Source: Planctomycetota bacterium (GTDB lineage: Bacteria; Planctomycetota; Brocadiia; SM23-32). Taken from it: 39,810 nt of DNA. The translations under genes were made by a program, and so were the position numbers. The stretch is from contig DAOVRD010000001.1 in the NCBI GenBank assembly GCA_030628375.1, forward strand, positions 1 to 39,810, given 5' to 3'. How positions within the stretch are numbered: the stretch's first letter is position 1; each line of letters begins with the position of its first letter. The notes under the pieces were generated by a model. The model was not told where the DNA came from. It saw only the letters and a program-made list of their open reading frames with translations, and did not search any database. Of the stretch, positions 17,786 through 39,810 are shown one piece after another.

Positions 17786-18574
17786 TTATGCATCACGCAG
17801 CACGCATGCCAGACTGCCGACGTGCTGGCGGTCGTGGTAGATCACGCGGAAGCCCGCTCGCCCCAACTCCTCCACCAACGCCTGCGGTTTCAGATGCCTT
17901 CTATGGGGCAGATACCATCTGCCGCTGATTCGTACCGCATCTGGGAAGTCCCCGGGCGCCTCATCCAGTGGGCTATACACGATGCCCGTCTTGAGGTCTA
18001 TGAGCCTATTTCCATAGCGACTGTACGCAGTTCCTGTCGAGGCATCCAGGACAGGCCCGTTCTCCCGGACCAGGGCTTCATGCTCCGCATCCATCACGGC
18101 GCTGCTGACGAGGTAGTACCCCTGGCTTTTCAAGCGTGCGCGGACCGCAGAGAAGACCCTCCCACGATCCTCGTCAAAGACAATGCACTGAAGGCAGTAG
18201 CTATCGACGATCATGTCATACTTCTTGCCCTCGGGGGGCAAGTCGCACACGTCCATGACCTCGTAGTGGATGTCCAGGCCTCGTTGGGATGCAAACTGTC
18301 TTGCCATCTCGATGGCGGCAGGGACCAAGTCGACGGCGTCGACACGGAAGCCTCTTTCCGCCAGGAAGCAGGCATCTGGACCGGTGCCACACCCGTAGTC
18401 CAGCACGGTAGGCTCCGCCGTCTGAAAACTCAGTTTGGGCAGGACTGCTTCTAAGAATGGCCGTGAGCAGAAGTTCTCGAATCCAACTCCACCATGGATC
18501 TCAGCCCAAGCTGTCTTGCCCTCGGCCCGGATCCTATCGTAGCCGCGGACGTGTTCTGGATAGTAGTACTTCAC
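17786..18574 (-). CDS. Class I SAM-dependent methyltransferase
   Basis: In-frame GTG at 18574 (AGGAGAG 8 nt upstream) within track ORF 17786-18673. Motif I is VLDYGCGTGPDACFLAERGFRVDAVD. Confidence 0.8.
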   Translation of the reverse strand: MKYYYPEHVRGYDRIRAEGKTAWAEIHGGVGFENFCSRPFLEAVLPKLSFQTAEPTVLDYGCGTGPDACFLAERGFRVDAVDLVPAAIEMARQFASQRGLDIHYEVMDVCDLPPEGKKYDMIVDSYCLQCIVFDEDRGRVFSAVRARLKSQGYYLVSSAVMDAEHEALVRENGPVLDASTGTAYSRYGNRLIDLKTGIVYSPLDEAPGDFPDAVRISGRWYLPHRRHLKPQALVEELGRAGFRVIYHDRQHVGSLACVLRDA

Positions 18575-18608
18575 GGTATCGCTCTCCTGGTTCGCCTGGG
18601 CAGGGAAC

Positions 18609-19397
18609 TCACCGGCACGGCCGGTCCGTGTCCGGCGGACGCTGCTGTTGCACGTCCGCCTTCCGACCCACAATCAGCAAGTACGCGGGCAGCTTGTCCA
18701 GGTTCGCCTTCATCCAGAACTCGTCCTCTACGTGCTCCCCGTGCTCATCGACTTCCACCAGGGCGCAACCGGCGTCCAGCACAGCCTGGATGTGATCGGC
18801 GACCGTCCAGTGGAACTCAAATTGAGGCTGGCCTTCGTCAGACCGATACTCGTAAGGCCCGCGGTTGAAATACCGGTGGCGTGGCGCGGGACCGTCGCTG
18901 TCGAGCCACATCCGCCTGATCGGGTGGTAGTCGTTGACGACAAGAATGCCTCCCGGCCTCAGCACACGCACGGCCTCCGCGTAGTACTTCCGAACATCGG
19001 AGACCCAGACCGACATGTGGCCACCCGTGTAGACGAGGTCGAAGGTGCTATCCCCCACACTGCTCAGGTCGGTAACGTCGGCCCTCAAGAAGGTCACCTC
19101 CAGCCCGAGAGCGCGTGCCCTCTCCTCGGCGATCTCCAGTCGCCTCTCGGATATGTCCACCGAGGTGACTTTGCCGCCCATTCCGGCCAGGGCGAAGACG
19201 ACCTCGTTGTCCCCGCTGCCCAGCACGCAGACATCCTTTCCCTGGACGTCCGTCAGGAACGGCATTTCGGCGGGGGAGAGGACCAGTGTCGGGTCCCGAT
19301 GACACCTCATCCAGAGGCCCCTCTTATCCTCCCTCTCCTTCCACCACTGGGCCGAAGCATTCCAGGCGGCCCGATTTGCCTCATGCATCTCGTTCAT
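18609..19397 (-). CDS. Class I SAM-dependent methyltransferase
   Basis: ATG at 19397 (MNEMHEANRAAW) within track ORF 18609-19640. Motif I is VCVLGSGDNEVVFALAGMGGKVTSVD, with LRPGGILVV downstream. Confidence 0.8.
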   Translation of the reverse strand: MNEMHEANRAAWNASAQWWKEREDKRGLWMRCHRDPTLVLSPAEMPFLTDVQGKDVCVLGSGDNEVVFALAGMGGKVTSVDISERRLEIAEERARALGLEVTFLRADVTDLSSVGDSTFDLVYTGGHMSVWVSDVRKYYAEAVRVLRPGGILVVNDYHPIRRMWLDSDGPAPRHRYFNRGPYEYRSDEGQPQFEFHWTVADHIQAVLDAGCALVEVDEHGEHVEDEFWMKANLDKLPAYLLIVGRKADVQQQRPPDTDRPCR

Positions 19398-19561
19398 TTC
19401 ACTCGTCCGGCTATTGATTGCCTCGTTTCCGCATAAGACCCGCTGAGTTCCATCATTCAACGCCTGCCGGCCGAACCGCCGAGCTTGAGTCGTCAACGCC
19501 TTCCAGCGGCGCCGCTCACGCGGGCAGTTTGCCGCTTGGCCATGCAACCGCGGCTGTAAGT

Positions 19562-19951
19562 TCAGTAGTCCCTGATGACCATGCCTACCGAAGGCTGCAT
19601 CCCGAACCTCGAGTAGAAAGGCTGCAATGCAGGATAGCATGTCAGGTCAATACAGGGAATGCCCCGCAGCTTCTCAAGAATCCGCCTCATCAATCCGGTC
19701 CCGATACCTTGATTCTGGTATTCGGGGAGCACTTCGAGAAGGTAGATGAAGGCCTGCTGAACATGGTCCGTGAGCGCCACAGCGAAACCCACGACTCGAT
19801 GCTCGTCGGGGTCCACCGCGACGATCTTGACGCCACTGTTCGCGAGAATCTTGAGATGCGTTTCAGGGTCATGGGGCCTCTTCCACCCCACAAAGAATCC
19901 CTGCAGCATGCCGGGCGTAATCGCGTCACTCGTGTCCGTGTATTCGATCAT
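19562..19951 (-). CDS. GNAT family N-acetyltransferase
   Basis: 129 aa: IYLLEVLPEYQNQGIGTGLMRRILEKL (motif A). The start overlaps the upstream stop (ATGA at 19948-19951). Confidence 0.85.
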   Translation of the reverse strand: MIEYTDTSDAITPGMLQGFFVGWKRPHDPETHLKILANSGVKIVAVDPDEHRVVGFAVALTDHVQQAFIYLLEVLPEYQNQGIGTGLMRRILEKLRGIPCIDLTCYPALQPFYSRFGMQPSVGMVIRDY

Positions 19952-20538
19952 TGCCTATCGTCCGGAACGAGAAGTTCGGCAACGAGTGCCTTTCCTTGGG
20001 CCAACTCCGCCGGGGGGAACTCGCCGCCCCGGATCATGTCAACAAGTTCCTGCGTGCTGTCTAACGCTGCGGCCAGTTGCGAGCCCGAAATGAGACCGAT
20101 GCCAAGAGCCATTCCCAGGTCGCTCAGGTCCAGCACGCTGTGCGTGCGGAGGTCTTCCTGAACGATCACGTCGCAGAAAAGGTCGGTGAAGAGCCAACAG
20201 CCAAGCGTCTCCTCGTGGCAAATGCTGCCAATGTGAACGTACCACGGCCAGTCCTCTCCGAGATTTGGGAAGCAGGCATTCTCGATGATGGCCCACTTCT
20301 TTCGTGGCAAGTAGTAGAGGAGCGACTTCGGGCCATAGCCGATCCCTGGATGGGGCCTCTCCACAATCAACTCGTCGCTGATCTGCCACCAACGCCAGTC
20401 CTCGTCCGGCGTCTCCCGGGATGCCACGACTTTCTGCTGGATGTGCGCGGAGACAACTTCGGGCGGATTGACCTTGAATCCCCGCCCTTCGCCATGCTCC
20501 TTGCCCAACCTTCGCCACACGACAAGGGTCCTTTCCAA
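19948..20538 (-). CDS. DUF402-like protein (FomD/Ntdp-type nucleoside phosphatase fold; tentative)
   Basis: 196 aa with a TTG start at 20538 and GGAGG 6 nt upstream. WYVHIGSICHEE...LFTDLFCDVIVQEDLRTHSVLDLSDL resembles the DUF402 acidic motif. Confidence 0.6.
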   Translation of the reverse strand: MERTLVVWRRLGKEHGEGRGFKVNPPEVVSAHIQQKVVASRETPDEDWRWWQISDELIVERPHPGIGYGPKSLLYYLPRKKWAIIENACFPNLGEDWPWYVHIGSICHEETLGCWLFTDLFCDVIVQEDLRTHSVLDLSDLGMALGIGLISGSQLAAALDSTQELVDMIRGGEFPPAELAQGKALVAELLVPDDRQ

Positions 20539-20609
20539 GGCTTGCCTCCGTTCCGCATGCGCTCTCCGTGCAATCGGGATTGATCATTCAACGCCAGGGG
20601 ACCGAACCG

Positions 20610-21344
20610 TCAGGCTTGAGGCGGTTGAAAGTGCGGTTGCTGGCCACTCTTGTATCCCCAGACGAGGCAACCTCGCTTGGTCACCGTAAGCGGCGCGCCC
20701 AAACGACGGGCGGCCTCCTGGCACTCACCTGCGTCCATTCCTCTGCCGAATAGATACTCCGCCACGGCCTCCACATCCGGCAGATGGATCATGGGAGCGT
20801 CCCACGCCTCCACCTCGACGTTCGCGAAGAACCTGGCGACAAGGTCCGGCGCATCCTCGGCGTCGAACGTCGAAGGTCGTGTGGGCATCACTTCGGCCAA
20901 CTCCGGATCGTTGTGCCGGCTGGGGGCCGCCGCAACGAAGAGCCCACCGGCACGCAGAACACGGCAACTCTCGCTGAGAGCCTTCTCGGGCTCCGACAGA
21001 TGGTAAAGCACGTACAGCGCGGCGACCGCTCCGAACCAGCCGGTTCGAAACGGAAGCGATGATGCGTCGCCGAGGACTCGCGACCCCGGCACGGCCGACA
21101 GCATCGTTGCGGAGTTGTCAAGCCCCACGACTTGAATCCCTTGATCTTGCAGGAGCCGGCACAATCTGCCTTCGCCACATCCAACGTCCAGGACGGGCTG
21201 CAAGCCCTCCCTCACGATTCGTTCTGCGACGGATTCATGAACATCGCCCTTGCCGTACTTGCGGGGGCATTCGCTGCCAACGCGGAAGCGCTCGGGATTC
21301 GTGTCATAATCTGCTGGAGCCGCTTGCGCTCGTTCTTCATCCAT
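20610..21344 (-). CDS. Class I SAM-dependent methyltransferase
   Basis: ATG at 21344 (MDEERAQ); the track start at 21377 is a TTG without an RBS. Motif I is VLDVGCGEGRLCRLLQDQGIQVVGLD, with LRAGGLFV downstream. Confidence 0.8.
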   Translation of the reverse strand: MDEERAQAAPADYDTNPERFRVGSECPRKYGKGDVHESVAERIVREGLQPVLDVGCGEGRLCRLLQDQGIQVVGLDNSATMLSAVPGSRVLGDASSLPFRTGWFGAVAALYVLYHLSEPEKALSESCRVLRAGGLFVAAAPSRHNDPELAEVMPTRPSTFDAEDAPDLVARFFANVEVEAWDAPMIHLPDVEAVAEYLFGRGMDAGECQEAARRLGAPLTVTKRGCLVWGYKSGQQPHFQPPQA

Positions 21345-21582
21345 TCTTGTCTGGCTCACACGAAGCGTAGTCGCCAACTAGCGCGCCAACCGCCGGTCGG
21401 TCGGACACCGAACCCGAGGAGCTTGAAACGTAGTCTGGCAGATCCTCGTACTGCCACATTCGCCGGCACTCGCTCTCGGCGTCCGTCGCCTTGCCCGCCT
21501 CGAAGCGTATTGTAACCGCGCCGTAGAGGTCTTCCAAGATAAGTCGAGTCAGGAATCTCAACAGTCTCGCGCCTTCCCGCAT
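21337..21582 (-). CDS. Small DUF2292 (YezD)-like protein
   Basis: LILEDLYGAVTIRFEAGKATDAESECRRMW resembles the DUF2292 core (YGSV-x-I-x-x-x-x-G-K-V). Start is ATG 21582, or 21621 as an alternative. It overlaps the next methyltransferase start by 8 nt. Confidence 0.5.
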   Translation of the reverse strand: MREGARLLRFLTRLILEDLYGAVTIRFEAGKATDAESECRRMWQYEDLPDYVSSSSGSVSDRPAVGALVGDYASCEPDKNG

Positions 21583-23839: not shown

Positions 23840-23867
23840 GTAGGGGCACGGCGCGCCGTGCCCTTAC
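23840..23867. repeat. REP-like element: GTAG + 20-bp perfect palindrome (intergenic copy)
   Basis: GTAGGGGCACGGCGCGCCGTGCCCTTAC, in the divergent region between the URO-D-like and DUF1284 genes. Confidence 0.85.
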
Positions 23868-30911: not shown

Positions 30912-31075
30912 GGGGTTCCGCAGAGGCCGCGATCACATGACCCCGCGTCTGCCTGCTAAGCCTATTCGTACGTGACCCCGTTCCGACTGCGATTATACTT
31001 GAGCGATCAAGCACCGTCCAGAGAGGAATCCTGGGAAGCTTGCAAGATTCTTCAGAACACGGCCAACACCAATGT

Positions 31076-31285
31076 CTATCGGCCGAGATGGACCGTACGG
31101 GGATCGGCCTTTCCCCCCTCGGTGGCCTGGAGGGTGCGAGAGAATGGAAGCGACAGGTCATAGCCGGATCTCTTGACACCTTGCTTTTCAAGCTCCTTGA
31201 TCAAAGCCAGGCTCTGTTCGAGCAAGCGGGTGTCGATGAGAGGGTTCGCTTTCACCAGTTCTTTCTTGTTTGGTTTCTTGCCCAT
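31076..31285 (-). CDS. Small hypothetical protein (69 aa) immediately downstream of the protease
   Basis: ATG at 31285 lies 5 nt after the protease TGA. MGKKPNKKELVKANPLIDTRLLEQSLALIKELEKQGVKRSGYDLSLPFSR is K/E-rich and protein-like. The last roughly 20 codons run into high-G+C flanking DNA. Confidence 0.5.
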   Translation of the reverse strand: MGKKPNKKELVKANPLIDTRLLEQSLALIKELEKQGVKRSGYDLSLPFSRTLQATEGGKADPRTVHLGR

Positions 31286-31290
31286 TCTTA

Positions 31291-32193
31291 TCACGCCCTC
31301 TTGTGAAAGCTCAGGGGGATAAACCGTAAGCGGGTGTGAATCACGCCCTCTGCAGCGCGTTTGTCCCTGTAATCCTTGAGAAGAAGGTAATATCTTGTGA
31401 TTCTCTCCTTCAACTCGTCGTTGGCCCCGAAGTCTTCAACGCGAAGCCCGACTTTGCGCCTCAGGATTTCCATGGAAATACCGCGTGAGTGGGAGTGCCA
31501 CTTCTTGGTGTCATTCAGCAATTCGGCGATTTGCGCAGCGCGCCGCACTTTCATCTGCCGGGTTACCTTAACCCCGCGAGTCTCGGTGCTTTTCCATGTT
31601 CTAAACTTATAGCGAACAAGCCAGTCTTTGAGCAAGGTGATAGTCAAATTCCGCGACTGTTCATATTGGTGCATCTCGGCGGGATCAAAACGTTCTATCA
31701 AATACGCCGCTTCTACAGCCGTCAGCTTGCCTTCTCTTGATTTGTCAAGCAGTTCCTCGTATTTCGCTAAGTACCCCAGCGCTGGCACCATTTTGCCATC
31801 GGGCTTTTCAATCTGTGGGTCAATTGGCCCCAGCACCGAAAAGTAGTCCATGTGGAGAGCATCGCCGGACATCACAAGAACCGTCCCGGCAGACTTGGCA
31901 AAATTCGGGATTATGAACTCTACTCGCCTATAATGGTGTCGAAGGAGAGCTACAAGGCGCTCGACCACGTCGATGTACCCCCCCGGCGTCTCCAACACCA
32001 AGCAGAGCTTCTTGCCCCGGCGTTTCCTAGTATGGAGCTCCTCTATAGCACTCCGAACCATATCATCCGCGCCGTACGCCAGTAATCCCACAAACGACAA
32101 CACATCGCCGCCGACAGTGGATTCGAGCGCCGTTATGTGGCCCTTGAGTTGCGCTTCAACGACGATGTTGGCGCTGGGTGCGGGCTTTGCCAC
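31291..32193 (-). CDS. SDH-family (PF01972-like) ClpP/crotonase-fold serine protease
   Basis: In-frame GTG at 32193 (AGGAGA 6 nt upstream) within track ORF 31291-32514. The upstream part of that ORF overlaps a better small gene in another frame. KLCLVLETPGGYIDVVERLVALL...IPNFAKSAGTVLVMSGDALHM is the S49/SDH-type nucleophile region. Confidence 0.75.
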   Translation of the reverse strand: MAKPAPSANIVVEAQLKGHITALESTVGGDVLSFVGLLAYGADDMVRSAIEELHTRKRRGKKLCLVLETPGGYIDVVERLVALLRHHYRRVEFIIPNFAKSAGTVLVMSGDALHMDYFSVLGPIDPQIEKPDGKMVPALGYLAKYEELLDKSREGKLTAVEAAYLIERFDPAEMHQYEQSRNLTITLLKDWLVRYKFRTWKSTETRGVKVTRQMKVRRAAQIAELLNDTKKWHSHSRGISMEILRRKVGLRVEDFGANDELKERITRYYLLLKDYRDKRAAEGVIHTRLRFIPLSFHKRA

Positions 32194-32263
32194 AACCTTT
32201 CTCCTGAAACCGCAGCGCGAGGAGCCAATTGGCCTATAATAAGGTGATGGGGCCAGAGCAGGT

Positions 32264-32488
32264 TCATCGCTGTTTGGACCAGCGCGCTTGGGCAGCTTTT
32301 CGCGCGATCTCTTTGCGTCTTTCAGCGGAAAGCCTTTGCGCCCGCGCTGGCCCGCCCTTGAGTCCACCAAGCCGCCCGAGTGCGACAGCCGCAGGATTCC
32401 TCTCGTCGCCGGTTGCTTCTGCGACGATCCGTTTGGCGGTAAGGTTCTCGGCTTCCGCCCTCTTATGCGTGGTTTCCTTCTTCGCCAT
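32264..32488 (-). CDS. Small basic protein with KGG/histone-H1-like C-terminal motif (putative nucleic-acid binding)
   Basis: ATG at 32488 in track ORF 32264-32518: MAKKETTHKRAEAENLTAKRIVAEATGDERNPAAVALGRLGGLKGGPARAQRLSAERRKEIARKAAQARWSKQR. Confidence 0.65.
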   Translation of the reverse strand: MAKKETTHKRAEAENLTAKRIVAEATGDERNPAAVALGRLGGLKGGPARAQRLSAERRKEIARKAAQARWSKQR

Positions 32489-32494
32489 GCCATC

Positions 32495-32522
32495 ATCATA
32501 CCATGCTTGACCACACAAGCAA
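32495..32522 (-). promoter_or_regulatory. Candidate sigma70-type promoter giving a leaderless or near-leaderless transcript
   Basis: Minus strand: TTGCTT (32522-32517), 16 nt spacer, TATGAT (32500-32495), then only 6 nt before the ATG at 32488. Confidence 0.45.
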
Positions 32523-32548
32523 GCAGAAAGTCTAGTAAAACTGACCCA

Positions 32549-33439
32549 CTACCCGCAGGGCCCCTGATTCGAGTTGACCAGGGGCACGATCCGGCTGCGG
32601 CCAGCGGGGCGGACCCCTTCCCTTAGCTGACGCCGGCTGCACGCGGGGAGGCGGGCGAACTGTCGCCGCAGGCGGGCGCGCGCCCACGCTTCGATAGGCG
32701 CGGGACCGGCAGGGATGAGGGGCTGGGCCTCGCCGAAGTCCTGGTTCCGCGCGCCGAAGGCTCGATGGCTCCGCACGTTATCGCCGCCGCCGCTGATGTG
32801 GTGCAGGCCCCCGGCCCAGCGATAGATGTAGCTGATGTCCCGGTCGGCCGGGTTCCAGGCGTAAAGCTCCCCGGCCTTGCGGAACTTCGCGAGCAAGGCC
32901 TTGGCCTGCCCGCTGACCTTCGGCGGGTAGCCGCCCAGCTCGAGGGCGCGCCGCCGGCCGAACACCATCTGCCCCTCGAAGACGTTGTGGCAGGGACCAC
33001 GCAACTCAAATCCTTCACGCGGGCCGACGCCCCACCACGCGGCGCCCGGCTTGACGCATCCCGTCCCGCATTGCGCGGGAGGACCCCCGCGCTCCAGAAG
33101 CGCCGAAACACACTGTCGGAGATGCCAGGGGAGGTAAAGGTCGTCGTCATCCCAGTGGGCGACCAACGGTGTCTCGGCCAACTCCAGAAGGGCCTGGCGT
33201 TTGTGGCCCAGAGTCGGGTAACGGGTCGGCGCATTTCGAACCTGCACGAACGGCAGATGAGGGCCCGTCAGAAGCGGAACCGGCGCGTCGTTCAGGATCA
33301 ACAGGCGCTTCTCGCCCGAGTAGTCCTGGAGCAGGAAGCAGGCGATGGCGTCGCGCAGTCGCTCGAAGCGGCCGTAAGTGGGGCAGAGGCACGTCACAGC
33401 AGGCCAGAGGCTGGAGACTGGAGGCTGCAGGTCAGACAT
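32549..33439 (-). CDS. Glycosyltransferase (GT2-like) with a repeat-encoded N-terminus
   Basis: ATG at 33439 (GGAGGA 8 nt upstream). MSDLQPPVSSLWP is encoded by repeat DNA, then AVTCLCPTYGRFERL...LILNDAP...HWDDDDLYLP (DxD). The start overlaps the upstream stop by 8 nt. Confidence 0.75.
   Translation of the reverse strand: MSDLQPPVSSLWPAVTCLCPTYGRFERLRDAIACFLLQDYSGEKRLLILNDAPVPLLTGPHLPFVQVRNAPTRYPTLGHKRQALLELAETPLVAHWDDDDLYLPWHLRQCVSALLERGGPPAQCGTGCVKPGAAWWGVGPREGFELRGPCHNVFEGQMVFGRRRALELGGYPPKVSGQAKALLAKFRKAGELYAWNPADRDISYIYRWAGGLHHISGGGDNVRSHRAFGARNQDFGEAQPLIPAGPAPIEAWARARLRRQFARLPACSRRQLREGVRPAGRSRIVPLVNSNQGPCG
33401..33434. repeat. GC-rich GGCTGGAG/CTGCAG-family repeat (copy a)
   Basis: Contains GGCTGGAGACTGGAGGCTG at 33409-33427, an identical 19-mer to 38119-38137. 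Confidence 0.85.
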
Positions 33440-34265
33440 CGGAACGGTCCTCCTCATGATCTACGCGGTCTACGGGCTTGCCATCACGGTAGACGATCTC
33501 GAAGCGCTGCGGACGGTGCCTCAAGGCGGTGGGTCGCTCCGGGGCACCCTGGACCCATCGCCGCAGCTTGTCCTGTCGGCTGCGCAGGAGCATGTTGACA
33601 GCGCGCCGGTGGATATCGTCCTCGTCCATTTCTGCCAGGCCCGCGAAGTCCTCCAGCCGCCCCGGCGCGCCGGCGCGCAGCCACTTGCGCACATACTGGC
33701 GCTCAACGAGCCGCCGGTCCGGCTTGACGCCCTTGACGTGGAACAGCAGGGGCCCGCCGCTCCTGGCCGGCTTCAGCTTGCCATCGAGCTGGTACTTCGC
33801 GGTGCTCCCCCCGCGCCAGGCGACATCCTTCAAGAGGCGGCGGTTCCAGTAGACGTGGCAGCGGTCGTAGTGGCGCAGGCGCTGGGTGGTGTGGTCGAAG
33901 TCGCCCCACATCTCGCACAGCTCCAGGCGCACGAGCGGCCGGGGGCCTTTGGCGATCTCGCGCAGCCGGTGGGCGGCGTACTCGCAGAGCACGTCATCCG
34001 CGTCGAGCCAGAACAGGTGGTCGGAGTCGGTCGCCTCAAGCAGGCGGTTGCGGGCCCGCACCCAGCCGAGTTGCTGCGCGCCTTCGTAACGGATCAGGCG
34101 CACGTGCCGATGCCGGGCGGCCGCATCGAGGGCCACGTCGGCCGTGTGGTCGCTCGAACAGTCGTCCAGCACGACGATCTCGTCGAAGTGGTCGGCGATG
34201 CTGCGCAGGCAGAAGCCGAGCGTGTAGTCGTCGTTGTGCGCGGGGATCAGGGCGGTGAGCTTCAT
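33432..34265 (-). CDS. Glycosyltransferase family 2
   Basis: ATG at 34265 within track ORF 33432-34424. MKLTALIPAHNDD...VVLDDCSSDHT...FWLDADD. ATGA overlap with the upstream gene at 34262-34265. Confidence 0.85.
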   Translation of the reverse strand: MKLTALIPAHNDDYTLGFCLRSIADHFDEIVVLDDCSSDHTADVALDAAARHRHVRLIRYEGAQQLGWVRARNRLLEATDSDHLFWLDADDVLCEYAAHRLREIAKGPRPLVRLELCEMWGDFDHTTQRLRHYDRCHVYWNRRLLKDVAWRGGSTAKYQLDGKLKPARSGGPLLFHVKGVKPDRRLVERQYVRKWLRAGAPGRLEDFAGLAEMDEDDIHRRAVNMLLRSRQDKLRRWVQGAPERPTALRHRPQRFEIVYRDGKPVDRVDHEEDRSDV

Positions 34266-34951
34266 GATGCGCTTCCGGTGGGCATCCCGCAGTCGCGGGA
34301 CCGTGCCCCTACGGCAACGGGTTCGCGGCGGTCGTCGTTGTGGGCGGGGGAAAACGGGACAGGCACCCCAGGGTCGGGATTGCCAGTCCCTGTTTTCCCG
34401 TTCTTGTCCACCCACCAGACCCACGCCGGGCCGACCTTCACCAGCTCCCCGAACGCCTCATCCACGGCGCGTTTGACGCCCCAGGCGTGGCACCAGCGCC
34501 CGTAGTCGTGTCCGAGCAGCGTGCCCCCTGCGCGCACCTTGGGCCACCAGAGCGCGATGTCCGCCCGCACGTACTCGTAGGCGTGGTTCGCATCCACGAA
34601 GACGAAGTCCAGGGCGCCGTCGGCGATCGTGCCGGCTGCCTCGCGGCTGAAGGCACGCACCACTACGACGCGGTCCCGGAAAGGCGCAACGCGCCTGGAG
34701 AACCTGCGGTAGGCCCGATCGAGCAGGCGCTGCGACGGCCACTCGATCCTGCGCCCGGCCCTGTCCGAGTCGTAGCCGGGGTAGTGCTGCCACGGGTCCA
34801 CGCAGTACAGCGTCCTCAGTCCCGGCAGGCGCGTGAGGAGCACCGCAGAGGTCTGGCCCTCCTTGACGCCGATCTCGGCGCCGACCGAATGCGGCCGGCT
34901 CGCCAGGACCTCGGCCACCACTCCCCACCGGCGCTTCGCCCTGATGGTCAT
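34262..34951 (-). CDS. Class I SAM-dependent methyltransferase (Methyltransf_24-like) with a repeat-derived C-terminal tail
   Basis: ATG at 34951 within track ORF 34262-35353, with ATGA overlap to the upstream GT8 stop. GAEIGVKEGQTSAVLL...LDFVFVDANHAYEYV. The tail ...REPVAVGARSRDCGMPTGSAS reads through a half REP. Confidence 0.8.
   Translation of the reverse strand: MTIRAKRRWGVVAEVLASRPHSVGAEIGVKEGQTSAVLLTRLPGLRTLYCVDPWQHYPGYDSDRAGRRIEWPSQRLLDRAYRRFSRRVAPFRDRVVVVRAFSREAAGTIADGALDFVFVDANHAYEYVRADIALWWPKVRAGGTLLGHDYGRWCHAWGVKRAVDEAFGELVKVGPAWVWWVDKNGKTGTGNPDPGVPVPFSPAHNDDRREPVAVGARSRDCGMPTGSAS
34297..34312. repeat. Half REP-like element
   Basis: GGGACCGTGCCCCTAC, whose reverse complement is GTAGGGGCACGGTCCC. 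Nearly identical to the half copy at 36929-36946. Confidence 0.7.
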
Positions 34952-35697
34952 CGCAGGGGGTCCTCCCATCGCCTGGCCCCGGTGTGGTGGATCAAGCCCG
35001 GCACCTCGCCCTTCCAGCCGAAACTGTGCTCCGCGCGCGACCAGAGGCGCACGCGGCAGCCGATCTCCGCAACGGCCAGCGCCAGCGCGTACTGGTCCAG
35101 CATCCACCAGGGGGATTTTGCGGGCTGCAGCTGCGGGTCGCTCACGCCGGCATGCCGGATGGCTTCCATCCAGCGGGGCCAGGATTGCGCCAGCGAACGG
35201 GCAACCTGGCCGCGGCACAAGAACGCGCCGGAGTTGAAGCCCTGGACCGGCGGGAGCCCGAAGTGGGAACAGAGGGCGGCCCAGCGCCGCCGGCTCAGGA
35301 ATCCGCCCGCCAGCCAGGCCGTCGCAACGCGGGCGCTGAAGTCGGCGTCGCACGCAAGAAGCTCGCCCAGCGACCCACGCACGACCGTGTCTGCATCCAG
35401 GAACAAGACCGAGGCCGCCGTCACATCTGCCAGGGCCGCAGGCTTGATCCCGGGGGGGTAGTCGCCGCCCTCGACCTCGACCACGCGGACGCGCACTCCG
35501 GGATTGTGCCGCACGGCCGTGTAGATGCTGCCGGCCGCCATCCGGCGGTACTTCTGGTCGGGCGTGACGGCGTAGACAACCGTCAGGCTGCAGGCTGCAG
35601 ACTGCAGGCTGGAGGTACCTCCGGCCTCCGGCCTCCCGTCTCCGGCCTGCTGCCTCCGGCCTCCAGTCTCCAGCCTGCCGTTCGTTCCGTCAGGCAT
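34948..35697 (-). CDS. Glycosyltransferase family 8-like with a 35-aa repeat-encoded N-terminal extension
   Basis: ATG at 35697 (8-nt overlap with the upstream stop) within track ORF 34948-35859. MPDGTNGRLETGGRRQQAGDGRPEAGGTSSLQSAACS is followed by LTVVYAVTPDQKY...LFLDADTVV...FNSGAFL. No canonical start codon lies nearer to the GT8 core. Confidence 0.75.
   Translation of the reverse strand: MPDGTNGRLETGGRRQQAGDGRPEAGGTSSLQSAACSLTVVYAVTPDQKYRRMAAGSIYTAVRHNPGVRVRVVEVEGGDYPPGIKPAALADVTAASVLFLDADTVVRGSLGELLACDADFSARVATAWLAGGFLSRRRWAALCSHFGLPPVQGFNSGAFLCRGQVARSLAQSWPRWMEAIRHAGVSDPQLQPAKSPWWMLDQYALALAVAEIGCRVRLWSRAEHSFGWKGEVPGLIHHTGARRWEDPLR
35584..35680. repeat. GC-rich GGCTGGAG/CTGCAG-family repeat (copy b), hairpin-capable
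   Basis: CAGGCTGCAGGCTGCAGACTGCAGGCTGGAGGTACCTCCGGCCTCCGGCC...CCTCCAGTCTCCAGCCTG. It has a central GGAGGTACCTCC palindrome and contains the family core in reverse orientation. Confidence 0.85.
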
Positions 35698-36517
35698 AGC
35701 CCAGGGCCTCCAGCTTCTGCCCGGTCGTCTCCTGCTCGAGGCGGGAGCCCTCGAGGCACAGCCAGGGCACGCGCCAGAGTTCTTCGTAACCGGTGTAGCC
35801 GCATTCGTGGCCGAACTTGCCGTCTTCGCCGAGCAGCTCGCCGTGGTCCGACGTGACAATCACCCGGCGCGGGGCGAGCTGCGAGGCCAGCAAGCGGGCC
35901 GCGTGCCAGACCAGCTCGAGGTTCGCGCGGTAGGCGGCGCGGAGCTGCTCCCAGGTGATCTCGCCACGCTTGACGGCGCGTCCCGGCCGGCGCAGCTTGT
36001 GGCAGGCCTCGCCGAACTCACCGCCGGCGGGGGCCCCTGCGCCTCCCCATCGGGCGAAGGCCAGGGGCACCGCGCCGATGTAGGGCGAGTGCGGCTGCAC
36101 GTAGTGGACGACGAGGGGGCGGCCCTCCAGCCTGCCCATCTGCACGTGCGCGGCGACGACGCCGTTGACGCTCAGCGGATGCACGCTCGGGATCTGGTGC
36201 GCCGTGAATCGCCCCCACTGGCTCTGCCAGACGGGCACCATCTCGATCCCCGCCTGCCGGCCGGCGGGCAGGTCCAGCCCGCACTTGCGCACTTCGCGGT
36301 CCACCACGGGATTGGCGCTGAAGTAGACGGCGCCGCGTTCCTGGAGGAGCGGGCCGGCAGCGCGGATCCAGGCGGGCGTGCACGGCCCGGCCGCGCGCAC
36401 GACCTCCGCGACGGCGCACGTCTCGGCGAAGGTGTCGGCGCGGCAGGCGTCCAGGACGATCAGCACATCCCAGTCCTCCTCGCGCAGCGCTATCAACTGC
36501 TCGCGCACGTCCACCAC
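35690..36517 (-). CDS. Alkaline-phosphatase-superfamily (sulfatase/phosphotransferase-like) protein
   Basis: 275 aa: DVLIVLDACRADTF...VVHYVQPHSPY...VIVTSDHGELLGEDGKFGH follows the metal-site order of the alkaline phosphatase superfamily. Confidence 0.75.
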   Translation of the reverse strand: MVDVREQLIALREEDWDVLIVLDACRADTFAETCAVAEVVRAAGPCTPAWIRAAGPLLQERGAVYFSANPVVDREVRKCGLDLPAGRQAGIEMVPVWQSQWGRFTAHQIPSVHPLSVNGVVAAHVQMGRLEGRPLVVHYVQPHSPYIGAVPLAFARWGGAGAPAGGEFGEACHKLRRPGRAVKRGEITWEQLRAAYRANLELVWHAARLLASQLAPRRVIVTSDHGELLGEDGKFGHECGYTGYEELWRVPWLCLEGSRLEQETTGQKLEALGYA

Positions 36518-36562
36518 CTTTCGTAGGGGCCCGGCAAGTTCATCCCGAGCGAAGTCGAGGGG

Positions 36563-36696
36563 CCGTGCCCACAGCAGTCAGCAGACAGTAGGTAGCAGAC
36601 TGCAGGCCGTAGGCTGCAGGCTGGAGGCTTGTGCGCCTCTGGCGCATACCTGCCGTCTGCAGCCACCAGCCTCCAGTCTGACTTCTGCCGTCCTAC
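36563..36696. repeat. GC-rich repeat (copy c): imperfect ~100-nt inverted repeat (REPIN-like) filling an intergenic gap
   Basis: Centre is TGCGCCtctGGCGCA (36632-36646). By hand alignment the flanking arms match about 24 of 32 positions as reverse complements. The minus-strand GTAG at 36693-36696 supplies the stop of the small membrane ORF. Confidence 0.75.
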
Positions 36697-36878
36697 TTCT
36701 CCTTCGCGGGCGAGCGCATGCCCAGCTTGAGTGCGGCATCCTCGACGGTGATCGCGCCGACTTCCGCCATGATGATGCCCGGAATCCAGAACGGGTGTCC
36801 CGTCAGGGCGGCGCTCACGCACGCGCCGACGGTCAGCCAGAACTTCCTCGACTGCAACAGTGCCTTGATGAAGCCCAT
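36693..36878 (-). CDS. Small membrane protein (61 aa), unknown function
   Basis: ATG at 36878 with a strong GAGGAGG RBS 6 nt upstream, within track ORF 36693-36959. MGFIKALLQSRKFWLTVGACVSAALTGHPFWIPGIIMAEVGAITV has two hydrophobic segments. Confidence 0.65.
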   Translation of the reverse strand: MGFIKALLQSRKFWLTVGACVSAALTGHPFWIPGIIMAEVGAITVEDAALKLGMRSPAKEK

Positions 36879-36928
36879 GATGGACCTCCTCTTCCTGAAG
36901 GAAGGGCATCCGCCGTCGCCAAGGCTAT

Positions 36929-36946
36929 GGCGGACCGTGCCCCTAC
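36929..36946. repeat. Half REP-like element whose GTAG provides the stop codon of the 884-codon ORF
   Basis: GGCGGACCGTGCCCCTAC. Minus strand reads ...ACG TAG GGGCACGGTCCGCC. Confidence 0.75.
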
Positions 36947-39597
36947 GTGCGACTGGCAAGCCATTCCTTGATGAGGGTGATGTAGCGGTCGCGGCGTTGA
37001 TAGTGGCCCGACTCAGACGATGCGCTCGACCCGCCCTGCGACAGCTCCTTCCACCGGTGCCCCAGCCGTGCGGGCACCAGGTGGTGGTCCTTCCGGCCGC
37101 CGCTGATGCAGAGGCTCAGGTAGACGTCGTCCTCGCGGTGGCTCAGTCCCTCGATCCCGGCGAGCAGCGGGATCTCCAGCGGCACCTTCGCCAGCAGCGC
37201 CCGACGCAGCAGCATGAAGCGACCCTTGATGATGTCGCACCTGGTGCCCTTGTGCGTGCCGTTGTGGTGGCGGCCGCGCCCGTAGTCCTTGCCCTCCACC
37301 TGGCTCCACCCGAAGAAGCCGACGATGCCGTCCGGGCACTCCTCGCCGCTGGCGGCCATCGCGTCCTCCAGCACGCGCTTGTCCTTGAACGTCAGGTCGT
37401 CGTCCATCGAGCAGACGTAGTCCGTCTCGGCCAGGCTGGCCAGCCACCAGCGCGGGAAGCAGCCCAGGTTCCGGCCGGCCTGCACCTCCAGGGCCACCAG
37501 CGGGTTCTCGACGATGGGCCGCTGCGGCCCGCCGTTCTGGCTGAACTGCACGGGGTCACCGTTGTTCCAGAGAAACACCTGCGCCTTGACGGTCTGCGCG
37601 GCGATGCTGTCCAGGACCCGGCCGATATTCTCCGGCCGCTGCCAGTTCAGAAGACACACAGTCACGAGGGGCTTCCCGTTGCCGTGGGCGCTTCGCGAAG
37701 CGCCCCTACTGCCTGCGGCCTGCTGTCTGCTGCCTGCTGTCTGTTTGCGCTCCTTCTTCAGCTCCTCGTCCACGATCTGCATGCGGTCGGCCGAGGGGTT
37801 GACGAGGATGCGCCCCCCGGGTCTCAGCAGGCCCTGTGCAGCGGCCTTGCACCGGTCCTGCATCTCGCCTGCAATCAGCACCAGGTCGAAGCCGTCCCCC
37901 CGCCACTTGGCCGGACAACTGGCGTAGGGGCACGGCGCGCCGTGCCCTGCCGTGAGTTTCACCTGTGCCAGCTTGATGCCGTTCGCCTGGCAGATGTCGT
38001 GCCAGTTGCCGGCGCGGTGGCCGGGCATCTCGATGCAGAAGACCTCCGCCTTCGGCAGCAGGCGCCGCACCAGCAGCGTGGACTCCCCCGGCCGCCATTG
38101 CAGAACACGCAGACGGCAGGCTGGAGACTGGAGGCTGGAGACCGCAGGTACAGCTTGCTTCTTGGCCGTACCTCCTGCCCGCAGCCTACGGACTGCGGCC
38201 TCGATTTCTGGTAGCCATGCGTGCTCGGGATGCGGCTCGGTGATGGGGGCCCGCTTGCCGCAGAGGTGCGTGAACACCTCCTGGACGGGGCGCACCCACG
38301 GCCGAGCGCCGGGCACGGCGCGCCGTGCCCCTACAGTCTCCAGCCTCCGGTCTCCAGCCTTCCGCGCGTCCTGCGCGCGGAACGCCTCCGTGCTGATGCG
38401 GCGCGTCTCCTCGGGGCCCAGCCACTTGCGGCACCAGGGTTTGAAACGCTGCTCCCAGACCTTGCGCCCGAACAGCGTGGCCGTGCCGTGGCAGACGTTG
38501 CGCCAGTTCTCGCGCCCGGCGTCCGGCACGGGGTTCTTGCTGCGCTCGCCCTTGCCGCAGCGGTACCAGTGGCGGAACACCACGTCGCGGCTGAAGTAGA
38601 TGGGGATGTCCATCAGGAACGCCTTGATGGCCAGCACCTGCTCGCTGAATCCCCAGCGCCCGGCGATGTCATCCCAGAGGTGGCCCGTGGCGGCTTCGAG
38701 CTTCTCGGCGGTGACGCGGCTCATGGCGTAGCCGGCCCCCATCGGCGCCGGCGAGCGCGTCCACTCCTGCGGCAGCGTCTTCGCCAGGTGCAGCCACTTC
38801 GGCTGGAAGCCGTCGTTCCGGTTGGTGAACAGGTCGCAGCAGAACAGGCGGCTGCCGATCAGCACGTCCTTGCCGTCCTCGACCTTCAGCCCGTTGCTGC
38901 CGGCGCAGACGATGCACGTGTCCTGCAGTGCGCGCCGCGCCAGCGTCTCCAGGCCCCCCTCCTTCGCCGAGGCTTCGGCGGGCAGGCCCTCGGGCTTGCC
39001 CGCCATAGTCCCGCCCTGCGGGACGACGGCGGGGAACCGCATGTGGGCGTCGTGGAAGGTGACCACGTCCCCCCGGGCCGCTTTCCAGCCCGCGTTGCGT
39101 GCGCGGCCGACGCCCTGAGGTTTTTTGTGCCGCACCAGAACCACACCCTTCACCCCGGCCGCGAAGTCGCAGGAGCCGTCCGTCGAGCCGTCGTCCACCA
39201 GCACGATCTCAAGCAGGGGCGGTTCGCGAACTTTAGCCGCCTTGGCGACCGCCCCTACCGACGCGCGGAGGGACTCGACGGTGCGGCGGACCTCGGCGCC
39301 CTCGTTGAAGGCGATGATCACCGCGCTGATGCGCGGTGAGGCCGGAGGCCGGGGGCTGGAGGCCGGAGGTACGGCGCGCGGCTCGTAGAACTCACAGCCG
39401 GGGCCGCAGCGCCTGGCCGGGACGGTGGCGCCCTTGCGGGTCGGGTGGCGGCAGACGATCCGCTCGCCGCAGCAACTCGTGTGCTGCCGCACTCCCGCGT
39501 GGCGGCAGTCGAACTTGCTGGGCACGGCACGCCGTGCCCCTACGGAACGCTTCGCGCTCTCTTCTGCCCTTCGCAACTTGTTACGCAGGTTCGGCAT
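36943..39597 (-). CDS. 884-codon multidomain ORF with repeat-encoded linkers: Cys-rich N-terminus + GT2 (DxH type) + methyltransferase-like domain + second GT2-like domain. It may instead be 2-3 adjacent genes.
   Basis: Domain A: SAVIIAFNEGAE...VLVDDGSTDGS...VTFHDAHMRF. Domain B: RVLQWRPGESTLLVRRLLPKAEVFCIEMPG...GFDLVLIAGE...LLRPGGRILV. Domain C: VTVCLLNWQRPEN...CSMDDDLTF. The domains are separated by REP-like and GC-rich repeats with no stop codon, and no convincing internal RBS plus start was found. Confidence 0.7.
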   Translation of the reverse strand: MPNLRNKLRRAEESAKRSVGARRAVPSKFDCRHAGVRQHTSCCGERIVCRHPTRKGATVPARRCGPGCEFYEPRAVPPASSPRPPASPRISAVIIAFNEGAEVRRTVESLRASVGAVAKAAKVREPPLLEIVLVDDGSTDGSCDFAAGVKGVVLVRHKKPQGVGRARNAGWKAARGDVVTFHDAHMRFPAVVPQGGTMAGKPEGLPAEASAKEGGLETLARRALQDTCIVCAGSNGLKVEDGKDVLIGSRLFCCDLFTNRNDGFQPKWLHLAKTLPQEWTRSPAPMGAGYAMSRVTAEKLEAATGHLWDDIAGRWGFSEQVLAIKAFLMDIPIYFSRDVVFRHWYRCGKGERSKNPVPDAGRENWRNVCHGTATLFGRKVWEQRFKPWCRKWLGPEETRRISTEAFRAQDARKAGDRRLETVGARRAVPGARPWVRPVQEVFTHLCGKRAPITEPHPEHAWLPEIEAAVRRLRAGGTAKKQAVPAVSSLQSPACRLRVLQWRPGESTLLVRRLLPKAEVFCIEMPGHRAGNWHDICQANGIKLAQVKLTAGHGAPCPYASCPAKWRGDGFDLVLIAGEMQDRCKAAAQGLLRPGGRILVNPSADRMQIVDEELKKERKQTAGSRQQAAGSRGASRSAHGNGKPLVTVCLLNWQRPENIGRVLDSIAAQTVKAQVFLWNNGDPVQFSQNGGPQRPIVENPLVALEVQAGRNLGCFPRWWLASLAETDYVCSMDDDLTFKDKRVLEDAMAASGEECPDGIVGFFGWSQVEGKDYGRGRHHNGTHKGTRCDIIKGRFMLLRRALLAKVPLEIPLLAGIEGLSHREDDVYLSLCISGGRKDHHLVPARLGHRWKELSQGGSSASSESGHYQRRDRYITLIKEWLASRT
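37686..37709. repeat. REP-like element, variant hairpin (inside ORF)
   Basis: GGGCGCTTCGCGAAGCGCCCCTAC, whose reverse complement is GTAG + GGGCGCTTCGCGAAGCGCCC (perfect 20-bp palindrome). Confidence 0.85.
37710..37747. repeat. GC-rich repeat (copy d) with internal CCTGCTGTCTG duplication
   Basis: TGCCTGCGGCCTGCTGTCTGCTGCCTGCTGTCTGTTTG. Encodes KQTAGSRQQAAGS on the minus strand. Confidence 0.75.
37924..37947. repeat. REP-like element (inside the methyltransferase-like domain)
   Basis: GTAGGGGCACGGCGCGCCGTGCCC on the plus strand. Translated on the minus strand as TAGHGAPCPYAS. Confidence 0.9.
38109..38200. repeat. GC-rich GGCTGGAG/CTGCAG-family repeat (copy e)
   Basis: Contains GGCTGGAGACTGGAGGCTG (38119-38137) and the inverted pair GCAGGTAC...GTACCTCCTGC. 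Encodes ...GGTAKKQAVPAVSSLQSPACRL. Confidence 0.85.
38311..38334. repeat. REP-like element (inside ORF, opposite orientation to 37924)
   Basis: GGGCACGGCGCGCCGTGCCCCTAC. Translated on the minus strand as VGARRAVP. Confidence 0.9.
38335..38360. repeat. GC-rich repeat (copy f), abutting a REP-like element
   Basis: AGTCTCCAGCCTCCGGTCTCCAGCCT, the reverse orientation of the family core. Confidence 0.8.
39338..39372. repeat. GC-rich repeat (copy g)
   Basis: GAGGCCGGAGGCCGGGGGCTGGAGGCCGGAGGTAC. Encodes VPPASSPRPPASP just before the GT2 core. Confidence 0.7.
39520..39544. repeat. REP-like element (one central mismatch), codons 19-26 of the 884-codon ORF
   Basis: GGGCACGGCACGCCGTGCCCCTAC. Translated on the minus strand as VGARRAVP. 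Confidence 0.85.
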
Positions 39598-39810
39598 CCA
39601 GCTTCAGCCCCTTCTCCATTGCAATCTCGCCAGCCAGCTGCGCCGAGATGAAACCCATCTCGACCAGTTGGACCAACAAGCCCTCCTTCGAAATCACTAC
39701 CGCGATGCGGTTCACAGCAGCCTCTACAATCGGCTTCTTCTCTGCCCGCTCGCGTTCGAGCCGGGCGGCCTGCTGCGCCTCGGCCTCGGCCTCCAGGTCC
39801 ACTGGGTCCA
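39581..39810 (-). CDS. Hypothetical protein, probably N-terminally incomplete (frame open to window end)
   Basis: ...DLEAEAEAQQAARLERERAEKKPIVEAAVNRIAVVISKEGLLVQLVEMGFISAQLAGEIAMEKGLKLDAEPA. The track start at 39802 is a GTG and the frame stays open to 39810. It overlaps the next start by 17 nt. Confidence 0.5.
   Translation of the reverse strand, partial: DPVDLEAEAEAQQAARLERERAEKKPIVEAAVNRIAVVISKEGLLVQLVEMGFISAQLAGEIAMEKGLKLDAEPA

Follow-up and report, generated by a model that had tools for sequence, protein, structure and literature searches.

The subject of this work is a family of short GC-rich repeats in a 39,810-nucleotide (nt) stretch of DNA from a Planctomycetota bacterium (contig DAOVRD010000001.1 of assembly GCA_030628375.1), to which we refer at its full length as the window. 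The repeats lie among glycosyltransferase (GT) genes at the right-hand end of the window, and a reading made from the letters alone, the sequence-only reading, had described seven patches of them at the junctions of what it took to be a biosynthetic cluster. All seven patches are present where that reading had placed them. In module order, positions 32549-39810 encode p133, a multidomain GT of 884 amino acids (aa), a small open reading frame (ORF), a sulfatase-like protein, a GT8-like protein, a Methyltransf_24 protein, a GT2 protein and a GT. Upstream of this module, in every related contig that we recovered (nine of them viral contigs from IMG/VR), lie Mu-type genes for portal, protease, gpT capsid, Gp36, tube and large tail proteins, and the homologues carry the labels of Planctomycetota or Brocadiia metagenome-assembled genomes (MAGs). 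The GT cluster is therefore not a cellular biosynthetic cluster but the conserved right-end module of a Mu-like prophage from a Planctomycetota-type host. Genes A to E have starts that overlap the preceding stops (ATGA or ATGNCTGA) and thus form a tightly coupled operon. The genes of the module are:

32549-33439, minus strand: gene A, GT
33432-34265, minus strand: gene B, GT2
34262-34951, minus strand: gene C, Methyltransf_24
34948-35697, minus strand: gene D, GT8-like
35690-36517, minus strand: gene E, sulfatase-like
36943-39597, minus strand: 884-aa multidomain protein with a Cys-rich N-terminus, a GT2 domain with a fold like that of polypeptide GalNAc-transferases (ppGalNAc-T), a helical region, a Rossmann or methyltransferase-like domain and a second GT domain (GT2/GT64-like)
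39581-39810, minus strand: 3' part of a p133 orthologue, at the contig end; in related Mu-like phages a 133-aa protein between the tail genes and the big GT

The patches have an internal period that the sequence-only reading had not noticed. Tandem Repeats Finder (TRF) reports a period of 7 at 33407-31, 35584-615, 35618-76, 36571-629, 37705-43, 38121-42, 38334-57 and 39338-69, and elsewhere in the 39.8 kb a single weak row with this period. The seven patches are imperfect tandem arrays of a heptanucleotide with the consensus 5'-SAGRCYG-3'. Phased by hand, they resolve into ten arms, five per strand, that comprise 62 units, all within 6 kb; the consensus is matched exactly by 30 of the 62 units and with at most one mismatch by 47. 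The tracts are short and imperfect (about 3-10 units, with 67-88% matches by TRF). The arrays, with the peptides that they encode where they are translated, are as follows:

33400-33434, plus strand: array a, CAGGCCA GAGGCTG GAGACTG GAGGCTG CAGGTCA, antisense to gene A, where it encodes residues 4-13 (LQPPVSSLWP) directly after the coupled start ATGTCTGA
35584-35618, plus strand: array b, left arm, CAGGCTG twice, CAGACTG, CAGGCTG and GAGGTAC, read in the GT8-like protein as ..GTSSLQSAACS
35615-35684, minus strand: array b, right arm, ten units ending in GAGGTAC, tail-to-tail with the left arm around GGTACC and read as GRLETGGRRQQAGDGRPEAGG
36575-36694: copy c, left arm at 36575-36630 (plus strand) and right arm at 36646-36694 (minus strand), with a hairpin, GTGCGCC TCT GGCGCAT, between them
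37702-37750, minus strand: array d, of a CAGRCAG sub-type, which runs into the GTAG of the palindrome GGGCGCTTCGCGAAGCGCCC (37684-37709) and is read as QTAGSRQQAAGSRGASRS
38110-38151, plus strand: array e, left arm, CAGACGG CAGGCTG GAGACTG GAGGCTG GAGACCG CAGGTAC, read as AVPAVSSLQSPAC
38168-38202, minus strand: the array-like "right arm" of patch e, which codes for the conserved helix EAAVRRLRAGGTA
38335-38361, minus strand: array f, read as AGDRRLET and directly contiguous with GTAGGGGCACGGCGCGCCGTGCCC, a perfect GTAG palindrome that spans 38308-38334 and gives VGARRAVPG
39338-39372, plus strand: array g, GAGGCCG twice, GGGGCTG, GAGGCCG and GAGGTAC, read as PPASSPRPPASP

The arrays are strongly concentrated. 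A two-unit pattern, SAGRCYGSAGRCYG, allowing at most one mismatch, has 33 matches in the window when 2.33 +/- 1.43 are expected from 100 dinucleotide-preserving shuffles, none of which reaches 33, and 32 of the 33 matches fall inside 33400-39365. Moreover, nine of the ten period-7 rows reported by TRF are in the 7.3-kb phage part of the 39.8-kb window (p = 2e-6). We considered whether chance, the codon usage of GC-rich DNA or an assembly artefact might produce such a pattern, given that GC content in the array stretch is high (68-71%) and that the contigs are metagenomic. This explanation is refuted: beyond the shuffles, the host part of the window is equally GC-rich and contains none of the arrays, three assemblies agree, and the ORFs that contain the arrays are intact and have orthologues.

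Shared starts, shared ends and inverted pairs

The arms have more in common than their unit. All ten align in register, and three of them (the right arms of b and c and the left arm of e) share the start RACGG-CAGGCTG-GAGACTG-GAGGCYG; the right arm of b and the left arm of e are 92% complementary across 36 nt, flank ACGGCAGG included. Five arms share the polar 3' end SAGGTAC, a motif that has 12 matches in the window as against 4.2 expected and whose five matches in the phage part are all array ends. The last unit of arms d and f is TAGGGGC, with which a perfect palindrome opens at its GTAG; both arrays end in GTAGGGGC, the beginning of these palindromes. Arrays a and e share an identical 19-20-mer, and, as had been noted before, exact copies of the 19-mer GGCTGGAGACTGGAGGCTG begin at 33409 and 38119, its only two sites in the whole window. 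Its reverse complement does recur in copies b, c and f, over 17, 13 and 12 nt, respectively, rather than the 13-16 nt given earlier. The common start, the order of the units and the terminal 3' unit show that copies spread between sites, and the variable number of units among the arms (5-10) shows expansion; the earlier description of the repeat as "mobile or expanding" is in this sense half borne out. The arms are therefore copies of one element with a variable number of units and not independent products of slippage.

The arms also occur as inverted pairs that can fold. In copies b and e the two arms face each other tail-to-tail, with GGTACC or a 16-nt loop in the middle, and the arms of c flank a small GC hairpin; the two arms of b together make a hairpin of about 100 nt. 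As predicted by the sequence-only reading, b and c fold as long imperfect hairpins, both as RNA (-63.8 kcal/mol with a z-score of -5.2 for b; -79.9 kcal/mol with a z-score of -4.8 for c) and as DNA (z-scores of -3.7 and -4.0), and copy e folds more weakly (z-scores of -2.95 as RNA and -0.5 as DNA). Its comparison of b and c with REPINs, doublets of repetitive extragenic palindromic (REP) sequences, is not supported: the arms are variable-length heptamer arrays and not REPs, and a Pfam scan of 28 ORFs of the window turned up neither a Y1 transposase nor a REP-associated tyrosine transposase (RAYT). A terminator scan found no T-runs after hairpins b or c, and no Rfam family scored above threshold on the arrays. 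(Note that patch b, at 35578-35627 on the plus strand, has a sub-threshold match to the Pseudomonas small RNA P26, at 27 bits against a gathering score of 36 and with E = 0.023, which probably reflects shared low-complexity hairpin sequence. Arrays of the type (GGAGGCT)n and (GCAGGCT)n are present in Pseudomonas genomes L031, L037, L038 and L059.)

The real REP-like elements of the window are neighbouring palindromes that open with GTAG:

23840-23867: GTAG REP-like palindrome
37684-37709: perfect palindrome GTAGGGGCGCTTCGCGAAGCGCCC, at the end of array d
37924-37951: palindrome in the 884-codon ORF, translated as GHGAPCPY, where the protein is 6 aa longer than its homologues
38308-38334: perfect palindrome, at the end of array f
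39517-39544: palindrome in the 884-codon ORF, read as VGARRAVPS, at which the MAG contig L005 starts exactly

The family has the form GTAGGGGCACGGCGCGCCGTGCCC(CTAC), is GTAG-tagged and is found in both the host and the prophage parts. Its opening, GTAGGGGC, has 11 matches in the window when 1.1 are expected, eight in the phage region and three in the host part (15833, 22668 and 23840); the eight include sites at 34305, 36523, 36939 and 39251. Four copies are translated in frame within the 884-aa protein, as VGARRAVP or GHGAPCPY. A REP is an imperfect palindrome of 20-40 nt with GTAG at one end, a description that these separate palindromes fit and the heptamer arrays do not. The heptamer family is nevertheless physically joined to the GTAG palindromes, the other GC-rich family of this locus.

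Translation of the arrays

Eight or nine of the ten arms fall within ORFs. The one intergenic copy is c, as the sequence-only reading had it; it lies between the 61-codon ORF F and gene E, includes units that bear TAG and has six stops in four frames. The 884-codon ORF is one genuine protein: it has more than 60 homologues of 740-990 aa (90-100% coverage, 37-55% identity), its GC content at third codon positions is 0.89, and its AlphaFold model has a mean predicted local distance difference test (pLDDT) score of 82 and four or five folded domains. (The closest structures to the first GT2 domain of this 800-950-aa phage protein are eukaryotic polypeptide GalNAc-transferases, with a Foldseek E of 1e-15, a likeness which may raise the question of whether proteins, e.g., virion proteins, rather than polysaccharides are glycosylated.) Repeats had been claimed as linkers in this ORF, and the claim stands for four patches (d, e, f and g) rather than the three that were counted. 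In an alignment of 23 sequences, 22 of them homologues, g, f with its palindrome and the left arm of e are insertions missing from most homologues, as are patch d and the palindromes of this gene, and the linker at d, which precedes the C-terminal GT domain, is hypervariable in all of them. Array g separates the Cys-rich N-terminal domain from the first GT2 domain. The model has ten segments with pLDDT below 50, and five of them coincide with palindromes or patches (residues 15-27, 77-85, 422-429, 481-493 and 626-640); among these the segments 77-85, 422-429, 481-493 and 626-640 correspond to g, f, the left arm of e and d, respectively. Patch e is only in part an insert. Its distal half (38165-38202) encodes a conserved, confidently modelled helix (residues 462-481, pLDDT 95/71), which makes this half resident coding sequence that resembles the unit. 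Thus, within a conserved gene, the insertions keep the frame, are absent from orthologues and fall in linkers off the fold core, as in-frame selfish repeats do. The big-GT homologues P0006, P0009, P0028, P0030, P0010 and P0002 (alignment A1) carry repeat-derived inserts of their own (TEGTEN/HRGTES-type, duplicated DGDVAATRP..SAVLGG blocks and GSGIGDRGSG), and repeat colonisation probably accounts for much of the spread in length of this family, from about 740 to 990 aa.

Two further arrays stand at gene starts. In the GT8-like gene the ATG at 35697, which overlaps the stop of gene E, is followed by no in-frame ATG, GTG or TTG before the conserved core, and the next start, M53, is already inside that core, in agreement with the earlier claim that the extension has no alternative start. 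Because the ATG at 35697 is the only canonical start upstream of the core, hairpin b must be translated if the GT8-like protein is made. The GT8 orthologue in the related contig L003 starts with GTG at the core sequence LTVCYAVTPD, with GGAGG upstream, and lacks the extension; the counterpart of the b site is there a 285-nt non-coding spacer with repeats of its own. The description of patches as N-terminal extensions therefore holds for b but not for a: in gene A the array takes the place of an N-terminal stretch that is about equally long in the orthologues, and adds no length, and in L003 the orthologue has at this site a heptamer array of another unit, CCTATCA.

The peptides quoted in the sequence-only reading are correct, and they differ with the strand. 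Two unrelated peptide series result: ..SSLQPPV.., PPASSPRPPASP and AVPAVSSLQSPA where the unit is antisense, and ..RLETGG(R/W).., AGDRRLET and AGSRQQAAGS where it is in the sense orientation. That both orientations are translated, that one copy is non-coding and that neither peptide is conserved show that the family is defined at the level of DNA, as had been proposed. Orthologues have either no patches or other ones, and the patches are specific to a lineage. These observations bear on the idea that the arrays were selected as peptide linkers, either as flexible spacers or as Ser/Pro-rich acceptors of O-glycosylation by the ppGalNAc-T-like first GT domain. Such a role would suit the position of the patches in low-pLDDT linkers, the structural matches of the first GT2 domain, the best of which are polypeptide GalNAc-transferases (E = 1e-15), and the SSLQPPV- and PPASSPRPPASP-type peptides of the antisense arrays. 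Half of the arms, however, are read the opposite way and encode Arg/Gly/Glu-rich peptides, copy c encodes none, and the homologues have either no such peptides or unrelated ones. Furthermore, a search of 5.8 billion proteins with the translated arrays found no conserved peptide family besides short spurious ORFs (domain-less, 49-146 aa). We therefore give the selection of peptide linkers very little credence. (Note that arrays b, d, f and g are free of stops in all six frames. We rejected this as a sign of selection, because the same holds for 50% of all heptamers, and for 71% once base composition is weighted in.)

Related phages and the distribution of arrays

The window is 99.95% identical to the ENA metagenome scaffold ZHAN22-2 scaffold_361 over the 12.9 kb compared and also matches contig JAGMDX010000103.1 of MAG GCA_023128475.1; a blastn search against 50,697 phage records gave no match. 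To the left of the module, positions 1-31 kb hold ordinary cellular genes by Pfam scan (DUF6785, xylose-isomerase-like TIM barrel, PQQ propeller, GH4, GFO/IDH/MocA, URO-D, M19 dipeptidase and methyltransferases). GC content dips to 0.53 at 31001-32548, just past the last gene of the phage module, and a terminator-like hairpin (32559-32545, minus strand) lies near the dip, which is the likely boundary between prophage and host. The next gene beyond it encodes a ClpP-like SDH-type serine protease without a counterpart in the related phage contigs. Within the host part, 16978-21377 (minus strand) encodes four class I S-adenosylmethionine-dependent methyltransferase paralogues in series (228, 295, 343 and 255 aa), whose paralogy is reflected in direct repeats D10 and D16, together with a nucleotidyltransferase-like ORF and a short-chain dehydrogenase/reductase; GC content is 0.60 there as compared with 0.65-0.68, and the GC skew is negative. 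Two unrelated tandem duplications, 27 nt x2 (1378-1432) and 39 nt x2 (8351-8428), are multiples of three and probably coding repeats, and a hexamer repeat, (GCCTCG)n at 39777-39793, gives EAEAEA in the p133 orthologue. The seven-gene module of GTs, methyltransferase and sulfatase-like protein is conserved after the tail genes in L002, L003, L126-L134 and the window.

Operons for glycan modification in prophages are often phase variable, and a seven-nt unit is not divisible by three. The arrays might accordingly serve as contingency loci, in which the gain or loss of one unit shifts the frame of gene A, gene D or the 884-aa gene and switches glycan modification by the prophage on or off. In support of this idea, two of the GT genes have an array directly 3' of their ATG, just where phase-variable lipooligosaccharide genes classically have their repeats (PMC2651432), and the GT genes of Haemophilus, Neisseria and Campylobacter that act as contingency loci likewise have a non-triplet repeat just after the start. 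Their repeats are long, perfect and polymorphic (PMC2651432), whereas those of the window are short (3-10 units), imperfect (67-88% matches) and identical in three assemblies that differ by single-nucleotide polymorphisms (SNPs). In particular, comparisons of consensus assemblies gave 6 SNPs and no gaps over 12.9 kb between the window and L001, 2 SNPs and no gaps between L001 and L005, 17 SNPs and no gaps between L003 and L126, and 2 SNPs and no gaps between L003 and L004, with L003, L004 and L126 coming from three samples; the SNPs listed for all of the pairs except L003 and L004 are outside the arrays. Neither a polymorphism in repeat number (no indels among these consensus assemblies) nor a long perfect tract was thus observed. 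Moreover, half of the arms lie in linkers of a gene that a frameshift would destroy, and one copy is intergenic. A contingency function is for these reasons very unlikely.

Sister phages have the same kind of repeat with other units. L002 and L129 have ten CAAGCCT arrays (the complement, AGGCTTG, is near the AGGCTGG of the window), which interleave with a CCCCG..CGGGG hairpin and are translated six times in the big GT as SLKPHAS/PENNGVN-type peptides. Ten arrays of GAAGGCA/AACGGCA are present in L128; nine arrays of mixed units in L132, together with a GGGGACAGGACCC hairpin family at junctions; and eight arrays in L003 and L126, every one with a different unit. No heptamer arrays were found in L127, L133 and L134. 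(The hairpin family of L132, GGGGACAGGACCC...GGGTCCTGTCCCC, is at gene junctions at 1493, 9768, 12963 and 14316.) The linker before the C-terminal GT domain has heptamer arrays in four lineages, with four units, those other than array d being in L002, L128 and L132. Hence the same junctions and linkers are occupied again and again by whichever small repeat is current in a lineage, as tolerance would predict. A scan for inverted repeats, made for conserved hairpins at orthologous junctions, gave lineage-specific repeats and no common structure, and we rejected such hairpins as a candidate.

Two explanations turn on these comparisons. The first is that each array was born in place by polymerase slippage, as an independent local microsatellite, none being copied from another site. 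Among the long simple sequence repeats of many prokaryotes, heptamers form the most abundant class (PMC4679880, PMC4692102), possibly through polymerase slippage (Mrazek 2007, as summarised in the same two papers), and the arrays of L003/L126 and L132 differ in unit from one to the next, just as slippage predicts; in addition, patch a matches the orthologous N-termini in length, and the helix at 38168-38202 is itself array-like. Against this, the ten arms of the window share a unit family, a start, a unit order and a terminal SAGGTAC or GTAG, and single families are also found in L002 (CAAGCCT) and L128 (GAAGGCA). We regard independent slippage as improbable for the window.

The second explanation is selection of the arrays, above all of the inverted pairs b and c, for hairpins in mRNA or DNA at operon junctions. 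The hairpins would act in processing or stability, in transcription or in translational coupling; nothing beyond the period of 7 nt and the pairing would then matter, and the unit would be free to differ among lineages. The strength of hairpins b and c as RNA is what such a function would call for, as are the confinement of arrays to the phage part and the recurrence of arrays or hairpins at the F/E, E/D and p659/p687 junctions and in the linker before the last GT domain, with unrelated sequences, in the window, L002, L003, L128 and L132. On the other hand, few or no arrays are present at these junctions in five related phages (L127, L133, L134, L130 and L131), the single-arm copies a, d, f and g form no local hairpin, and copy e folds weakly. 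Nor do T-runs follow the hairpins or an Rfam family score above threshold, and junctions and linkers are also simply places that tolerate insertions. Selection for a nucleic-acid structure is, in our judgement, unlikely.

Units like those of the window occur well beyond these phages. A scan of GTDB with AGRCTGSAGRCTGSAGRCTG returned, among the matches listed, (GGAGGCT)n, (GGAGACT)n and (GCAGGCT)n arrays of 3-13 units from Acidobacteriota, Planctomycetota, Chloroflexota, Gemmatimonadota, Pseudomonas and others, many of them followed by an inverted array. The source MAG was absent from the 85 listed stretches, of at least 120, that were checked by contig name. The presence of such arrays in many phyla means that arrays of this type are common in bacteria. 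The ends found in the window (RACGG..., and ...SAGGTAC or the GTAG palindrome) are not a general feature. Across at least 120 GTDB arrays, GTA was not enriched after the array (5 versus 4), and the 50 nt downstream folded no better than the 50 nt upstream (p = 0.33), and we thus rejected "array, then GTA, then hairpin" as a general architecture. When open-frame length was used to ask whether the GTDB arrays are coding or intergenic, the median was 315 codons as against 454 in the control, a measure with no discriminating power in GC-rich genomes, whose frames are long and open throughout. In IMG/VR, an array with the SAGGTAC end had no matches, and the 19-mer was found in four unrelated contigs, within ordinary (GGAGGCT/GGAGACT)n arrays.

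A probable dispersed repeat at permissive sites

The explanation that we favour, and which we think probable though far from certain, is that the patches are a lineage-specific dispersed heptameric repeat, coupled to GTAG REPs, that persists only at permissive sites. Each patch would be a copy of a small non-coding repeat whose body is an imperfect SAGRCYG array of 5-10 units, whose 5' start is RACGG-CAGGCTG-GAGACTG-GAGGCYG and whose 3' end is either SAGGTAC, often joined tail-to-tail to an inverted second copy so as to make a long hairpin, or the GTAG of a perfect palindrome of REP type. Spread between sites could proceed by recombination or gene conversion between arrays, or by a single-strand hairpin route such as that used by GTAG REPs, after which we infer that the number of units drifts through replication slippage. 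Copies would accumulate in the GT module of the prophage where they do little harm, i.e., in one intergenic spacer, immediately 3' of the coupled starts of two genes and, in the 884-aa protein, in loops or the linkers between domains, and those within genes would survive only if they keep the frame without a stop in the frame used. The translated copies would be disordered filler, rich in Ser/Pro/Ala or in Arg/Gly/Glu/Gln, with no function of their own, and any effects of hairpins b and c on mRNA or translation would be a by-product and not the reason for their presence.

Several points weigh against this explanation. The 32.5 kb of host DNA in the window contains no heptamer arrays, where a host-wide selfish repeat predicts otherwise; such a repeat would need an extra assumption, either that selection on the prophage is relaxed or that the repeat was acquired in another host. 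No target-site duplication, transposase or pair of empty and filled sites at high identity was found; the nearest relative of the locus is only about 53% identical in protein. Hairpin b (-64 kcal/mol) spans codons 7-38 of the GT8-like gene, which has no alternative start, and a cost to expression is expected. Finally, four phage lineages have arrays at the same junctions, which could point to function rather than to mere tolerance.

A bolder proposal would make the array element an active small mobile repeat of the Mu-like phage family and not of the host, one that inserts preferentially at the boundaries of genes and domains, often next to GTAG palindromes, and that supplies in-frame linker cassettes and homologous joints for the shuffling of GT genes and domains. 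Were it true, phage-borne arrays that seek boundaries would bear on how modular phage genes are reshuffled, and shuffling joints would account for the presence of different heptamer families at the same junctions across lineages; we think that the chances of its being so are slim. The arrays are placed where Mu has mom, and the Mom modification of Mu has the reported target consensus (C/G)A(C/G)N(C/T). The unit core SAGRC fits this consensus, a link that we rejected as a low-information coincidence.

Ogata and colleagues reportedly described, in 2000, the classic case of selfish DNA in frame within protein-coding genes, the Rickettsia palindromic elements (RPEs). Like the arrays, RPEs are dispersed repeats that lie in frame in many unrelated genes and add an extra surface segment that is tolerated off the catalytic cores; unlike the arrays, they are palindromes of 100-150 bp without an internal 7-nt periodicity, are found chromosome-wide and belong to an intracellular bacterium. 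Closer in unit are the dispersed heptamer families, among them the short tandemly repeated repetitive (STRR) sequences of Calothrix and Anabaena, GGGAATC in Xanthomonas, with paired inverted copies, and GGGGA(C/T)T in Nostoc, 32% of which is intragenic (PMC4692102), as well as TAACTGA in Beggiatoaceae, cyanobacteria and Bacteroidetes, with 10 sets inside ORFs of the BOGUAY genome (PMC4679880). As in these families, the arrays of the window are short head-to-tail tandems of a 7-nt unit (2 to about 26 units in STRR-type repeats), with several separate arrays of the same unit on both strands, some inverted pairs, units that are specific to a lineage and some copies in ORFs. STRR-type families are, however, mainly intergenic and genome-wide, whereas all of the copies seen here are in the prophage module, and those other than c are in ORFs with orthologues; in addition, the present unit is not G-quadruplex-forming, has defined ends and is joined to GTAG palindromes.

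GTAG-tagged REPs are known from the Planctomycetes-Verrucomicrobia-Chlamydiae superphylum and are found in frame inside genes, most often in Opitutus terrae (PMC3733652). The definition of GTAG REPs is fitted by the companion palindromes of the window (GTAG and a 10-bp GC-rich stem), in both the host and the phage parts, and not by the heptamer arrays, which have no body of GTAG and short palindrome and form hairpins from inverted arrays; no RAYT was seen among the window ORFs scanned. The companion palindromes also resemble the intragenic REPs of O. terrae in being translated in frame within a real protein, and inverted pairs, here of heptamer arms, form long hairpins. A term search of the text of PMC3733652 returned no composite of an array and a REP. 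The earlier judgement that the locus is unusual is accordingly too strong, since intragenic REPs, RPEs and intragenic heptamer arrays are documented (PMC3733652, PMC4679880 and PMC4692102). The locus combines known things, namely heptamer repeats, GTAG REPs and in-frame selfish repeats, and what is uncommon is their density, with eight to nine of the ten arms in ORFs within 6 kb.

The locus offers a compact natural case of short non-coding repeats colonising protein-coding DNA. Within about 6 kb, the heptamer element and the GTAG REPs between them make up half of the ten disordered segments in a conserved enzyme of 884 aa, a 35-residue extension at one N-terminus and a segment at another, and GTAG palindromes also break assemblies, as the MAG contig that ends at one of them illustrates. 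For annotation, this means that low-complexity linkers and N-terminal extensions in the proteins of GC-rich MAGs may be repeat DNA and not evolved peptide.

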